Source of the DNA: Minisyncoccota bacterium | GTDB lineage: Bacteria; Patescibacteriota; Microgenomatia; UBA1400; UBA12028 | DNA length: 44,722 bases | Direction: 5' to 3' | NCBI GenBank assembly: GCA_016211945.1 | Contig: JACRHV010000006.1 | Coordinates: forward strand, 1 to 44,722 | Part shown: positions 19,433-29,135 of the stretch, one piece after another | How positions within the stretch are numbered: the first letter of the stretch is position 1 | Layout of the letters: each line of letters begins with the position of its first letter | Notes under the pieces: model-generated | The model's database searches: none | Seen by the model: the letters and a program-made list of their open reading frames with translations, nothing else | What the model was told of the DNA's origin: nothing | Made by a program: the position numbers and the translations under genes

Positions 19433-21754
19433 TTACAGTTTGCACTTACTGTACGCGCAGTTCGGGCAGAGGTTGCACCCCTCTTGGTTTTGCATTACAG
19501 TTCCACATTCCGGACATTTTTCTTCATCTGTGGTAATGTCGACGACATCTCCATGTTTGATTTCCTGCCGAATAACGGTAGAAAAATCGTTACGATCGGC
19601 AAGCGGAGTTACTCTATGCTGGCTTTGCATGATCTGCACTGATTTTTTATCCTTTTTCTTATCACTTCCCTGAGACATCACTGAAAGCACCTGAACGCTC
19701 TTGGATCTGTCACGATAAATTGTGATTCCTTTTAGACCTAATTTCCAAGCCAAAATGTAGGCTCCTCGAATTTCCTCAACCGTAGCGTTTGACGGAAAGT
19801 TAATTGTTTTACTCACAGCATTGTCGGTGTGTTTTTGAAATGCGGCCTGCATACGAACGTGCCATTCCCATGAAATATCGTGCGCTGTAACAAAGATGCG
19901 CCGGAGTTCATGCGGAACACTATCGCTATGCTGCACACTTCCCGTTTGTGATACCTCAGCGATAATCGCGTTATACTCACCATTACTTCCAACATATTCT
20001 TTCAATGCATGCTCAAAGTGCGCGTTTACATATGTTAATCCTGATGTATCAACAACATTCTTGTTATAACTCAACGCGAAAATCGGCTCAATACCGCTAC
20101 TGCAATCCGCAGTCATAGAAATTGTTCCTGTTGGTGCGATTGTTGTGATTGCGACATTTCTAAATTTTCTTGGAGAATGTTTGTGTGTATAGCTATGGGT
20201 CACCGGGTCGTATCCACGGGCAAACCAACTCTCCTTCCATCGAGGAAACGATCCCTTTTCCCTTGCCAGTTGCTCCGATGAAATCCAGCTGTTTTCTTGC
20301 ACATGTCGCATCACTTTTTCCGCAAGCTTAACCCCTTCTTCCGAGTTGTATGGAATTCCAAGCTGCACAAGCATATCCGCCCATCCCATGACGCCCAGGC
20401 CTATGCGTCTATTTTTTTTCACCGTTTCTGTAATTTGAGGTAATGGATATTTACACGCGTCAATAACGTTATCTAACATACGTGTTGCAATACGTGCGAC
20501 TTCACCCAACCGTTCCCAATTCACAACACCTTTTCCCTTTGAGTCCATCTTCACAAACGCGGCGAGATTAATCGATCCCAAGTTACACGAGTCAAAACCA
20601 TGAAGGGGTTGTTCACCGCATGGATTTGTTGCATAAATAGGTCCGACGCTATCGCAGAGCGGGTTGTTGCGATTGATCGCATCCCAATAGATCATCCCCG
20701 GATCGCCCGTTCTCCATGCTAAAGAAACAATTTGATCCATAAGCAGTCGTGCAGAGATTTTTTGTATTGGCTCCATAGTGCGTGGATTGCGTAACGCAAA
20801 CTCCGTATCTTTTTCTACCGCTTTCATAAACTCATCTGTCGCACCAACGGAAATATTGAAGTTGCTGATTTCTCCCTCTTCACTTTTACACGTAATAAAC
20901 TCGAGAATATCGGGGTGCCAAGCGGCCAAAATTCCCATGTTCGCACCGCGTTGCTTTCCACCTTGCATAACCTGACGCGTCGCGATATCAAATACCTTCA
21001 TAAATGAAACCGGTCCTGTGGAAAAGCCGCCGGATGATTTGGTGACTGCATCACCGCGGGGACGAAGAGGAGTGAAATCAAAACCCGTACCGCCGCCCGT
21101 CCTATGGACAAGTGCGGTCCACTTTACTGCATCAAAAATGCCTTCCATGCTATCTTCTACTGGTAAGACGAAACAATTTGCGAGTTGATTTTGTGGTGTC
21201 CCAGCATTATTGAGTGTTCTTCCACCGGGCAAAAACTCAAATTTTGTCATGACTTCATAAAACACTTCTCCCCATTTTTTCTGAACTGCTTTTTTTTCTA
21301 CTCCCGCAAGTGTTCGCGCAACACGACGGAACATTTCTGCTGGAGTCTCTGTGGGTTTTCCCTGCTGATCATGAAGGAGATAGCGACGCTCAATAACTTT
21401 AAGTTGATTGATGGAAAGATTGAGGTCATTCTCAACACCAAGAACCGTTTCTGCTTTACGGATTTTTGCGTGTTCTGCTCGATACAAAATGTATGCTTTC
21501 GCGGTTGAAAAATGACCTGCTGCCATGAGAACTTGTTCAACGGTGTCCTGAATCTGTTCAACAGTAACAGGAGATTTTTTTACACCAACAACCTTTTCCA
21601 AAATTCCACGCACTATGCCAGCCAATCGTACCGCATCCTGCTCTCCAAACTCACGCGTCTGAACTCCCGCCTTCTCAATAGCAGTCCCTATTTTTTTCTC
21701 TTCAAATGAAACTTTTGATCCATCTCTCTTTACCACCGTCTTCAACGCAGTCAT
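19433..21754 (-). CDS. nrdJ: Class II (adenosylcobalamin-dependent) ribonucleotide reductase, paralogue 3, with ATP cone
   Basis: VVKRDG ATP cone; [39 protein letters not shown] (no class I YY pair); C-terminal CPEC..GC..CPNC.YSKC. Confidence 0.92.
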   Translation of the reverse strand: MTALKTVVKRDGSKVSFEEKKIGTAIEKAGVQTREFGEQDAVRLAGIVRGILEKVVGVKKSPVTVEQIQDTVEQVLMAAGHFSTAKAYILYRAEHAKIRKAETVLGVENDLNLSINQLKVIERRYLLHDQQGKPTETPAEMFRRVARTLAGVEKKAVQKKWGEVFYEVMTKFEFLPGGRTLNNAGTPQNQLANCFVLPVEDSMEGIFDAVKWTALVHRTGGGTGFDFTPLRPRGDAVTKSSGGFSTGPVSFMKVFDIATRQVMQGGKQRGANMGILAAWHPDILEFITCKSEEGEISNFNISVGATDEFMKAVEKDTEFALRNPRTMEPIQKISARLLMDQIVSLAWRTGDPGMIYWDAINRNNPLCDSVGPIYATNPCGEQPLHGFDSCNLGSINLAAFVKMDSKGKGVVNWERLGEVARIATRMLDNVIDACKYPLPQITETVKKNRRIGLGVMGWADMLVQLGIPYNSEEGVKLAEKVMRHVQENSWISSEQLAREKGSFPRWKESWFARGYDPVTHSYTHKHSPRKFRNVAITTIAPTGTISMTADCSSGIEPIFALSYNKNVVDTSGLTYVNAHFEHALKEYVGSNGEYNAIIAEVSQTGSVQHSDSVPHELRRIFVTAHDISWEWHVRMQAAFQKHTDNAVSKTINFPSNATVEEIRGAYILAWKLGLKGITIYRDRSKSVQVLSVMSQGSDKKKDKKSVQIMQSQHRVTPLADRNDFSTVIRQEIKHGDVVDITTDEEKCPECGTVMQNQEGCNLCPNCAYSKCKL

Positions 21755-22182
21755 TTCTTCTCCTTCTCTTGCTCCGGTTCATACAGTGGATGACCGCCTC
21801 GAGTTGCTGCTTTTATTTTGTAATAGGCCCGATCTTTTTCTTCCTGTGTCATGGTGGGGGAAAAAAGTGATTCTGGATATTTCTTCTCATTTTTTTCCAT
21901 TTTTCTCTCAAATGCTTGTGCGACATCGATTCCAAGTCGATCGCCCAAGTTCACGAGCCACCACAACACATCACTCATTTCTTCACTAATTGCGTCCTTA
22001 ATTTTTTGATTGTTCAGTACTTCATCACCAGTGAGCCACTGAAAATGCTCAAGAAGCTCGGACCCCTCAAGAATCAAGGAAAGTGCTATATCCTTAGGAT
22101 CCTCATTTGTCCATCCTCGCTTTTTTCGAAATATTCGAATAAGCTCTTTTATTTGTGAGAGTGATGTCGTCTGGTCATTCAT
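21751..22182 (-). CDS. MazG-like nucleotide pyrophosphohydrolase (dCTPase-like)
   Basis: RGW...PKDIALSLILEGSELLEHFQW...EEMSDVL...KMEKNEKKYP. Start ATG 22182; overlaps the nrdJ-3 start. Confidence 0.87.
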   Translation of the reverse strand: MNDQTTSLSQIKELIRIFRKKRGWTNEDPKDIALSLILEGSELLEHFQWLTGDEVLNNQKIKDAISEEMSDVLWWLVNLGDRLGIDVAQAFERKMEKNEKKYPESLFSPTMTQEEKDRAYYKIKAATRGGHPLYEPEQEKEKK

Positions 22183-22216
22183 TTGTTTTTCTCCCTCTGT
22201 GGCGCAGTGTCCCTTT

Positions 22217-27041: not shown

Positions 27042-27050
27042 CAAAACCCC

Positions 27051-29135
27051 CTATATACTACATTTGCTATACGCACAACTCGGACACACAAAACACCCCT
27101 CCTGAATAACAAGCGTGGTACTACATTCGGGACATGCCTCATCACCAGGCCTCACTTTTATTAGCGGCGCGCCAACAAACGCCTCGTTGTTAAATGTCTT
27201 TCCATCTTCTTCTCGTTTGCGTTTTGTATCACCGGTCTCCAACACAACCTTGCTTCTGCTTCCCGTAACATACACCGTCATTCCTTTTAATCCTAATTTC
27301 CATCCTTTGAAGTATGCTTTCCAGACTTCGTCTTCTGTTGCTTCTGCTGGAAAATTAATTGTTTTGGAAATGGCATTGTCGACAAACCGTTGCAGTGCCG
27401 CCTCCATCTCAACGTGTTCGCTCACAGGAATGTCACCCGATACAACAAACACTTCACGAATCTCTTTTGGCACATCGTCAAGATCTTGGCATGTTCCGTG
27501 TTGTCTGATCTCCTCAAAAATGGTTTCAATGCGTTTTTCGTCGAGCTTTGCGCGTTCAAGTGATTCTTTAAATAAACGACTCTCATAATACAACTCACGA
27601 AAATCTTGGCCGAGTTTTTCTGCTCCTTCATGTGTTCGCATCACGTAACTCAACGCAAAGACTGGTTCACATCCGTATCCCTCCAAACCAGAAATCGTGG
27701 CAATTGCTCCAGTAGGCTGAATGGTGTTTTGACAGCTGTGACGCACTCCATGTGTTTTGATATTTTTTTCGAGTAACTCCCAGTCTAATTTTGGCATTCC
27801 AACGTGGTGTTTGTAGTCGTGTAATGGTTTTGGACGACTCCAAACTTTGATTCCTTTTACCTTGAGTGTTGCAATATTCTGTTCAGAATAGTCATACCGA
27901 CTTCCTTTTATTCCTGGAAATGCGCCGCGTTCTTGTGCAAGCGCGTTTGATGCGCGTAGTGTGTGGAAACGAATATATTCCATGATTTGGCCGGCAAAAT
28001 CGATGCCTTTTTCGCTCCCATATCGGACTCCAACAGCGTAAAGCATGTCTGCTAATCCCATAATAGAAATACCAATACGTCTATTGCGTTTTGCAGCCTC
28101 TTCCAACTCCGGAACCGCAGAAACATATTTATTCGCATCAACGACATCATCGAGCCAACGCACGGTATACTCGACAGTTTCCGCTAATTTTCCCCAGTCA
28201 ACGCTGTACGGGAACATACCTTTTTTCTTCTCGTCAAGTTTTACGTGTTCCGCAAGATTGATTGAGGCCATACAACAGTTTTCGTACGGAAGGAGGAATT
28301 GTTCTCCGCAAGGATTTGTCGCTTCAAGATCTCCTTGTGATGGGGTTGGATTTTCTCGATTTGCCTCATCCAAAAACAACACCCCTGGCTCCCCATTGTG
28401 ATGCGCAAAATGAACAATGTCATGGAACAACTCCCGCGCCTTAACACGCTCCCACACTTCCCCATTCCGTGGATTTATTAACGGAAAATCAGTATCTTTT
28501 TCCACCGCCTCCATAAACGCATCGGTAATACCAACAGAAATATTAAAATGCTCGATGACACCCTCCCGCTCCTTACAATGAATAAATTCACGAATATCTG
28601 GATGGTGGACAGGGAGAACTGCCATACAGGCCGACCTACGTCCCCCACCCTGACCAATGACCCAAAACGCTGTGTCATAGACCTTCAAGAAGGACACCGC
28701 TCCCGTTGCCTTTCCTTTTGATGAACCAATAGAGTCTCCTTTGGGTCGAATACGCCCAAAGCTAAATCCAACACCCCCACCCGATTGCAGTACGAGCACG
28801 GCATCACGTAGTGTTGTAAATATCCCATCCTGCGTACGACCCATATCATCGCTGATAGGAAGAACAAAACAGTTCGCGAGCTGCCCCCATCCCGTTCCTG
28901 CATTTGCTAAAGTTCGTCCGTTTGGCATAAATCGAAAATCTTGTAAAAGATCTAAAAATTTCTTCTCGATTTCCTGAGGTGTTGAACCATCTCTGTAGTT
29001 ATGCTCTGCCTGTGCAACAACTCGCGCAGTGCGAGACAAAATATCTTTCACTGTCTCTTTTGGATTGCCATCATCATCGCGAAGCGCATAGCGGTTAATC
29101 ATGACTTCTTGTGCGTTCGGCGTTAATTTTTTCAT
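27051..29135 (-). CDS. nrdJ: Class II ribonucleotide reductase, paralogue 1, without ATP cone
   Basis: [43 protein letters not shown]-terminal CPEC..GC..CPSC.YSKC. Confidence 0.9.

Follow-up and report, generated by a model that had tools for sequence, protein, structure and literature searches.

Three class II ribonucleotide reductase paralogues with different, lineage-conserved specificity loops in a small Patescibacteria genome

We found that a contig of 44,722 nucleotides (nt) from a Minisyncoccota bacterium (JACRHV010000006.1 of assembly GCA_016211945.1; the whole stretch analysed, hereafter the window) encodes three paralogous class II ribonucleotide reductases (RNRs), nrdJ-1, nrdJ-2 and nrdJ-3, that differ in the loops through which the effector selects the substrate. 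Our results support the view that the three are not redundant copies but an ancient, jointly retained set, whose differences are concentrated where the effector is linked to the choice of substrate. The sequence comparisons give good support to a functional differentiation with the specificity loops at its centre. Characterised class I and class II RNRs are described as having one catalytic subunit for all four substrates, with deoxynucleoside triphosphate (dNTP) effectors switching one of these loops, loop 2, and balancing the pools. The proteins described here are clear NrdJ family members that depart from this canonical organisation of one enzyme with one switching loop. We give an even chance to the reading that the differentiated protomers divide substrate/effector specificity among themselves, probably as a hetero-oligomer.

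Results

The three proteins are NrdJ family members and the only RNRs found in their genome

All three open reading frames (ORFs) contain the all-alpha (PF00317) and the ten-stranded barrel (PF02867) domains of RNR. PF02867 scored 409-455 bits against a cutoff of 23.9, with E-values of 1e-122 for nrdJ-1, 3.5e-122 for nrdJ-2 and 5e-136 for nrdJ-3 (J1, J2 and J3 below, also for their lineages). The NCBIfam scan with the equivalog model NrdJ_Z (TIGR02504; cutoff 399.95) took in J1, which reached 608 bits, and J3, which reached 717 bits; J2 was left out because an intein interrupts it. The same two proteins matched the NrdJ of Thermotoga maritima with E = 1e-98 (J1) and E = 2e-113 (J3). The thiyl-radical cysteine in the NPCGE finger loop, the asparagine, the glutamate and the redox cysteine pair are present in all three translations, and all three end in CxxC...CxxC...C. 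In their lineages, this C-terminal zinc-finger tail was found in 11 of 11 J1, 18 of 18 J2 and 17 of 19 J3 sequences; such a Cys-rich tail occurs in 71% of dimeric class II RNRs, according to PMC9669993. The J2 and J3 proteins of the window also carry an ATP-cone, which J1 lacks, and the same domain was present in 18 of the 19 J3 but in none of the 11 J1 sequences. From their family membership, the three NrdJs are expected to bind and use adenosylcobalamin.

The genome itself is assembled in 16 contigs totalling 908 kb, with a completeness of 100% as judged from marker genes. PF02867 had three matches in it, so that nrdJ-1, nrdJ-2 and nrdJ-3 are the only RNRs found, and searches of this genome for NrdB (PF00268) and NrdD (PF13597) gave no match.

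Loop 2 departs from the canonical form in each paralogue

A preliminary description of this DNA had read three different loop 2 strings from the sequence. Translation of the exact coordinates (Table 1) confirmed all three, within a few bases of the ranges quoted there, and the loop 1 strings it gave for the effector side were also correct for all three paralogues. The loop 2 region aligns without gaps with that of T. maritima NrdJ (PDB 1xje, loop VKQGSRRRGALM). The position of T. maritima K202 is occupied by glycine in J1, leucine in J2 and methionine in J3, while Q203 is kept in all three. At the position of R207, which corresponds to R298 of Escherichia coli, J1 and J2 have arginine and J3 has glutamine; the alignment thus bears out the earlier claim of a glutamine in place of this arginine in nrdJ-3. 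Across the J3 lineage, this position is occupied by K, R, H, Q or L, and the glutamine of nrdJ-3 is therefore a local variant and not a J3 hallmark. The window set as a whole does not have the canonical loop 2 (K202, Q203 and R207 in T. maritima; Q294 and R298 in E. coli). The motif that the preliminary description had given as usual does exist close by, as KQGG[T/K]RRGANM in eight genomes of the same order.

The residues concerned have assigned roles. In T. maritima, K202 projects toward GDP and Q203 toward CDP or UDP, according to the structural account in PMC3267527. For the E. coli enzyme, PMC4728125 describes Arg298 as binding the β-phosphate of all substrates and Gln294 as supporting pyrimidines, with specificity accounted for by three loop 2 conformations. 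In yeast Rnr1, substitution of a single residue of loop 2 skews the dNTP pools, as reported in PMC2896522.

Each loop signature marks a separate clade

The NrdJ regions of 29 genomes in this order supplied 78 ORFs, which were aligned with MAFFT and fell into six groups, first defined from the loop 2 motif. In the J1 loop, GQGGGRRSA is invariant in all 11 J1 sequences, and 117 of the best 120 database relatives carry GQGGGRRSA[C/A]M. J1', which replaces J1 at the head of the array, has the loop INEGSSRRVA[M/L]M, with glutamate for glutamine. The J2 loop is ILQG[A/S]KRQGANI (LQG[A16/S2]KR[Q17/R1]G across the 18 sequences), and LQGAKRQGANI was found in 49 of 120 database relatives of the J2 N-extein. 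The J3 loop, VMQGG-x-x-x-GANM, has a variable center; among 119 database relatives, 98 have MQGGKKRGANM, 18 have MQGGKQRGANM and 2 have MQGGKLRGANM. J4 is an unlinked gene with the loop QAG[G/K]RR[S/G]GNM. The S group has the canonical loop, IKQGGTRRGANM.

Each of the six groups formed a clade with 99-100 support in FastTree and IQ-TREE analyses; J1 has a support of 100 and stands on a long stem. When the 43 positions of loop 1 and loop 2 were left out, the tree recovered the same six groups, again with 99-100 support; thus, the grouping is not circular. Each loop variant is conserved inside its orthologue clade, a check that the preliminary description had proposed. Branching within the clades is similar among J1, J2, J3 and J4, as expected if the duplications are old and their products have been inherited together ever since.

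Two aberrant NrdJ-like ORFs lie on very long branches, one in genome G023 (L062:3937-6120, minus strand) and one in genome G082 (L066:3185-4924, minus strand). Their loop 2 sequences are unusual, FKQEGKYESGNM and IASAGHRRGAQM, and the ORF of G023 adjoins a canonical S-type gene. Three genomes of family f18 (G034, G082 and G089) have other RNR types.

The columns that separate the lineages are enriched in loop 2

The catalytic and effector-binding residues are shared by the lineages. The redox pair and the finger-loop Asn, Cys and Glu are invariant in every clade of the MAFFT alignment, bar one partial J3 row at C134. Table 4 of PMC4728125 lists D141 and R171 as the T. maritima effector anchors, which contact the ribose and the phosphates; R171 is invariant in every clade, and D141 is present in all but one partial J3 row.

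Within clades, loop 2 is more conserved than the protein core (78-98% vs 63-72% identity). Between clades, identity is 40-49% in the core and 28-71% in loop 2, and for several clade pairs the divergence of loop 2 equals or exceeds that of the core (J1-J2, 0.37 in loop 2 vs 0.41 in the core; J1'-J2, 0.28 vs 0.44). When 578 alignment columns were ranked by their mutual information with clade, 5 of the top 28 belonged to the 17 columns that cover loop 2, against an expectation of 0.82 (hypergeometric p = 7.6e-4, indicative only). The position of T. maritima K202 ranks second, and after it come positions 257, 259 and 260 of P0003, in the helix that runs into loop 2.

A second discriminating cluster, which includes the top-ranked column (568), spans P0003 residues 565-575 (window about 20030-20062, minus strand), past the phosphate-binding GIEP loop.

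The J-type genes occur together and apart from the canonical gene

The distribution of the lineages was examined in 101 genomes drawn evenly from the order, with one degenerate pattern per loop. Each pattern matched once per genome, except for one genome with two J4 matches, and reversed control patterns gave no match in the 101 genomes; the arrangement is not due to chance. Twenty-five genomes have J1 and 12 others have J1'. J2 was detected in 38 genomes by pattern and as an ORF in one more (G076), J3 in 39 by pattern and as an ORF in G051, whose IMQGG loop the pattern missed, and J4 in 34. All 25 J1 genomes also contain J2, and 32 of the 101 genomes hold the complete four-gene set. The J1-J2-J3 adjacency is strictly conserved, while J4 is unlinked from the array. 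These multi-NrdJ sets are kept in genomes of 0.7-1.4 Mb from seven families.

J-type loops of any kind were present in 41 genomes, and J2 and J3 occur together in 39 of them. Eight of the 101 genomes have the canonical loop, and in these eight no J-type loop was found; in the seven canonical-loop genomes checked, the RNR gene is single, and G023 has a second, aberrant gene. The J-type variants are therefore not common among single-copy NrdJs, a possibility that the preliminary description had raised against its own proposal. Roughly half of the sampled genomes show no clear RNR, with no PF02867 match in 31 genomes and weak matches only (E 7e-9 to 1e-3) in 18.

Two of the 41 genomes, G054 and G036, are exceptions to the joint occurrence of J2 and J3 and are considered in the Discussion. 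In G054, a monomeric-type RNR of 786 amino acids with a class II insertion domain lies upstream of J3 (L061:4791-7148, plus strand); it looks as though an enzyme able to work alone had taken the place of most of the NrdJ set.

Across 185,579 species, the J1 loop pattern matched 44 stretches, 42 of them inside NrdJ ORFs, and in 28 of these 42 J2 was adjacent within the 8-kb locus. The titles of the 44 public records (L085-L128) include 19 of 'uncultured Pseudomonadales bacterium', one of Verrucomicrobiia and one of Acidiferrales. The NrdJ arrays of these oddly titled records resemble Microgenomates-type ones, and mislabels or binning errors are possible.

Other classes of the phylum fuse two NrdJ modules

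A scan of 301 genomes at phylum level for the J2-like loop gave six matches outside the order (G303, G223, G124, G347, G189 and G318; L078-L084). The RNR barrel model had two or three matches in neighboring or single frames in five of the six genomes, and ORF calling revealed one layout in all six: a single-module gene, A, followed by a gene in which two modules, M1 and M2, are fused. Gene A encodes about 590-730 amino acids and has a loop 2 without the glutamine (for example, VVNNASTRRAGNM). The fusion gene encodes 1,376-1,493 amino acids with two complete NrdJ modules, M1 with the loop LQG-x-KR-x-G[G/A]NM and M2 with the loop I[R/K/Q][T/G][K/R]GGR-x-x-G[S/A]M, which also lacks the glutamine. 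The M1-M2 pair of G189 is divided between two overlapping reading frames, and the fusion gene of G318 is cut off by the end of its contig. Each of the 68 database proteins with 1,200 or more amino acids contains two complete NrdJ modules, and the catalytic and effector-anchor residues are kept in both modules of the fusions (73 of 73 each). Gene A stops directly after the barrel, without a Cys/Zn tail, and the fusion protein has one TSCPD domain and one zinc-finger tail for its two barrels. In four of the five outside genomes checked, the three modules are the only RNR matches.

In the trees, M1 is the sister group of J2 (support 100), and gene A groups with J1' (support 83) within a 95-support group (IQ-TREE) that includes M2. 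Gene order had suggested M2 as an orthologue of J3; this was rejected, as M2 groups with gene A and J1' and not with J3. Apparent J2-J3 or J1'-J2 fusions inside the order, frames of 1307-1662 amino acids in G080, G083 and G068, were likewise rejected: ORF calling identified separate genes, and the frames read through stops.

The nrdJ genes lie in an operon led by nrdR

The three nrdJ genes belong to a seven-gene operon on the minus strand, in the order nrdR, nrdJ-1, nrdJ-2, a 303-amino acid ORF, a NUDIX gene, a MazG-like gene and nrdJ-3 (Table 1). Gaps or overlaps measure 0-8 nt among nrdR, nrdJ-1, nrdJ-2 and the 303-amino acid ORF, and likewise between the MazG-like gene and nrdJ-3. NrdR matched the NCBIfam model TIGR00244 with 186 bits (cutoff 124.65), and its gene ends 2 nt ahead of nrdJ-1. 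One DNA run from groundwater contains the operon and may be its source; among RNA datasets, none was listed as containing it.

The intein of nrdJ-2 matches the Pfam families Intein_splicing (PF14890) and LAGLIDADG_3 (PF14528); its translation begins with cysteine and ends with His-Asn, followed by a cysteine. Inteins also occur in J1, J2 and/or J3 of relatives (L133 of G040, L035 of G085 and L058 of G092). All three array genes of G040 are long, interrupted ORFs (1035, 1046 and 1235 amino acids), and ORF calling attributed the long ORFs of G020 and G040 to inteins.

The 303-amino acid ORF had no match in NCBIfam and none at or above 0.9 in the Atlas; its sole Pfam match, to MMADHC, is below threshold (E = 0.004; 17 bits, cutoff 27). 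MMADHC is a cobalamin-trafficking protein, which is intriguing next to B12 enzymes, but the match is unsupported. Nucleotide-housekeeping genes surround the RNR genes, encoding Maf, NUDIX, MazG-like and cytidylate-kinase-like P-loop proteins (17920-18609, 21751-22705 and 31037-31648; all minus strand).

Table 1. Positions of the nrdJ operon genes, the intein and the specificity loops in the window
Feature	Positions	Strand	Basis
nrdR, transcriptional repressor of RNR genes, leading the operon	29138..29719	-	Pfam Zn_ribbon_NrdR and ATP-cone
nrdJ-1 (J1 lineage), 694 amino acids; class II RNR without ATP-cone, C-terminal Cys-rich zinc-finger tail	27051..29135	-	Pfam, TIGR02504
nrdJ-1 loop 1 (effector side), 20 residues	28689..28748	-	Translation; clade-specific consensus
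nrdJ-1 loop 2, 11 residues, GQGGGRRSA core	28623..28655	-	Translation of exact coordinates
nrdJ-2 (J2 lineage), 1144 amino acids including intein; ATP-cone, RNR core, zinc-finger tail	23610..27044	-	Pfam
nrdJ-2 loop 1, RPHGDKVKNVPKASSGPVDF	26283..26342	-	Translation
nrdJ-2 loop 2, LQGAKRQGANI	26217..26249	-	Translation of exact coordinates
Intein, 390 amino acids, LAGLIDADG endonuclease, between NP and the thiyl-radical Cys of the nrdJ-2 NPCGE finger loop	24735..25904	-	Pfam
303-amino acid ORF within the operon, between nrdJ-2 and the NUDIX gene	22698..23609	-	No credible family
NUDIX hydrolase gene	22217..22705	-	Pfam NUDIX, E = 1e-27
MazG-like nucleotide pyrophosphohydrolase gene, 4-nt overlap with nrdJ-3 start	21751..22323	-	Pfam MazG-like, E = 3e-12
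nrdJ-3 (J3 lineage), 773 amino acids; ATP-cone, RNR core, zinc-finger tail	19433..21754	-	Pfam, TIGR02504
nrdJ-3 loop 1, RPRGDAVTKSSGGFSTGPVSF	21002..21064	-	Translation
nrdJ-3 loop 2, MQGGKQRGANM, Gln at T. maritima Arg207 position	20936..20968	-	Translation of exact coordinates

Discussion

A shared-out substrate task is the reading that we favor. In a normal NrdJ, one loop 2 flips between conformations to cover all four substrates. J1, J2 and J3 are old, vertically co-inherited lineages, probably co-transcribed behind nrdR in this Patescibacteria (Microgenomates-type) genome of ~0.9 Mb, with loop 2, loop 1 and the preceding helix of each lineage under lineage-specific purifying selection. 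The four-substrate task would be divided so that each protomer is tuned to a subset of the substrate/effector pairs; effector sensing would be retained, with each protomer answering to fewer pairs. The protomers would act as a hetero-oligomer across the specificity-site interface and not as three independent enzymes.

Substrate partition and heteromer formation are what we infer from the patterns described above. A heteromer is suggested because catalytic modules are covalently fused in other classes and one module has no reducing tail of its own; the fusion together with the tail-less module is the strongest available hint of one complex. Because the effector site (D141 and R171) is conserved, allostery has probably been kept. 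The proposal of the preliminary description that gene-level specialization replaces allosteric switching is thus probably wrong in this respect, and nothing points to the modified-nucleotide substrates that it offered as another option. As for the substrates, J2 may handle pyrimidines, a hint that comes from the outside sets, where only M1, the module of J2 type, keeps the pyrimidine-linked glutamine.

Several observations weigh against a partition of substrates among the protomers. All three window paralogues keep the pyrimidine-supporting glutamine, and a simple substrate assignment therefore does not follow. Loop 1 is not a significant hotspot, with 2 of the top 28 columns (p = 0.21), and the p-values overstate the enrichment and are only indicative because related genomes and sequences are not independent. 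The center of the J3 loop varies inside its own clade. In the account of PMC4728125, loop 2 is not strongly conserved across characterised RNRs and contacts the base mostly through its backbone, so that a change of loop sequence need not alter specificity. The set is also not rigid: none of the 11 genomes of the window's own family, and neither of the 2 of family f12, gave a J4 match. Genome G054 has J3 and a monomeric-type RNR only, with no J1 or J1', J2 or J4, and in G036, an assembly of 130 contigs, J4 alone was detected. Last, the translated arrays inside the window's order contain no fusion, and the fusions elsewhere do not tell which protein is the partner of J2 in the window, because M2 does not group with J3.

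Part of the evidence would also be accommodated by a heteromer that has not specialized at all. Here, the interfaces would have drifted in a compensatory manner by constructive neutral evolution, each site would still reduce four substrates, and the loops would be fixed by lineage but functionally equivalent. The fusions and the tail-less module argue for physical association under this explanation as well, the effector anchors are intact in all lineages, and base recognition through the backbone, as described in PMC4728125, tolerates sequence change. Several of the top columns moreover lie in the helix before loop 2 (P0003 positions 257-260), which we place, by inference, at the dimer interface. 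We nevertheless consider this explanation unlikely: drift leaves unexplained why loop 2 is nearly invariant within lineages, above the level of the core, why the substrate-contacting K202 is among the two most discriminating columns, and why all single-copy relatives have the canonical loop. Three stand-alone homodimers, each hard-wired to one substrate/effector pair, represent the strict form of what the preliminary description proposed, and we regard them as distinctly unlikely. Each window paralogue does have all catalytic residues, its own zinc-finger reducing tail and a distinct loop signature, and J4 is unlinked from the array. However, the fusion that contains the J2 orthologue and the tail-less module A point to joint, heteromeric action and not to independent enzymes, the J1-J2-J3 adjacency is strictly conserved, and the ATP-cone is confined to some paralogues (18 of 19 J3 and none of 11 J1 sequences). 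A stand-alone J1 would lack overall activity control because it has no ATP-cone.

The uneven ATP-cone content also speaks for isozymes that differ in regulation or in the conditions under which they act, such as dATP inhibition through the ATP-cone, reductant or cofactor supply. Many bacteria have several RNRs for different conditions, and under this explanation each enzyme would handle the four substrates normally, with incidental loop differences. We hold it to be very unlikely, since the genes form one operon with one nrdR and are probably co-expressed, three or four large genes are retained jointly in genomes of 0.7-1.4 Mb from seven families, and retention is nearly all-or-none (39 of 41 genomes). 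The division of specificity within a hetero-oligomer thus remains the reading that we prefer. A bolder version of it, possible but doubtful in our view, is that the specificity cycle itself has been hard-wired: the three modules would represent the three loop 2 conformations (pyrimidines, G and A) in a heteromer where an effector at the interface of one protomer gates the active site of another, and the pools would be set by the architecture. The match between three modules and three conformations is numerology so far.

These sets are a natural case of very small genomes that retain three or four differentiated catalytic subunits, two of which are fused in relatives from other classes. If the favored reading is true, they would amount to a natural dissection of the specificity mechanism, in which the relation of loop 2 residues to substrate/effector pairs becomes directly testable, as does the question of whether regulation crosses the dimer interface. 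The reading also bears on dNTP pool balance in reduced, episymbiotic bacteria. In the full-text literature searched, with subscription journals and supplements outside its scope, no account was found of Patescibacteria with multi-NrdJ sets, of a double-barrel NrdJ or of substrate-specialized RNR paralogues; the double-barrel architecture, not found there, would be an addition to the RNR family. A term search of the RNR phylogeny papers PMC9531940 and PMC9669993, supplements again outside the scope, gave no mention of such sets.

Comparison with known systems

The closest characterised relative is the dimeric class II NrdJ of T. maritima (PDB 1xje), which shares with the window paralogues the fold, the family, the NPCGE finger loop, the redox cysteines, D141 and R171, as well as the length and register of loop 2. 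In T. maritima, one enzyme serves four substrates with a switching loop 2 (VKQGSRRRGALM), whereas the window type comprises three or four co-inherited paralogues, each with its own fixed loop. K202 is kept by none of the window-type paralogues, and R207 is not kept by J3. The S-type NrdJ, single-copy in sister families within the order, is likewise a dimeric-type class II enzyme with a zinc-finger tail. It differs in having the canonical loop (IKQGGTRRGANM), a TSCPD domain and no ATP-cone, is the sole RNR gene in the seven genomes checked, and never shares a genome with J-type loops in the 101-genome sample.

Paralogous RNR subunits that form heteromers, as proposed here, have a precedent in yeast, with its α paralogues Rnr1 and Rnr3 and the Rnr2/Rnr4 heterodimer. 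The yeast enzyme, however, is a eukaryotic class I RNR, in which Rnr3 is a damage-induced copy of low activity and Rnr4 is catalytically dead, and we know of no partition of specificity loops among its paralogues.

In the monomeric class II RNR of the Lactobacillus leichmannii type, the two sides of the specificity-site interface come from a single polypeptide, with an insert that mimics the helices of the partner, as described in the structural account in PMC3267527. The fused modules may follow a similar principle; the mimic of the monomeric enzyme is a non-catalytic insert, whereas both halves of the fusions are complete enzymes. The double-barrel NrdJs (Dojkabacteria and Kerfeldbacteria are among the source names) resemble the window set in having three modules with differentiated loops and retained catalytic residues, and their M1 is the J2 orthologue. 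They differ in that two modules are fused and share one tail while the third is tail-less, as opposed to three separate, tailed genes in the window, and in that A and M2 lack the loop 2 glutamine that all three window paralogues have.

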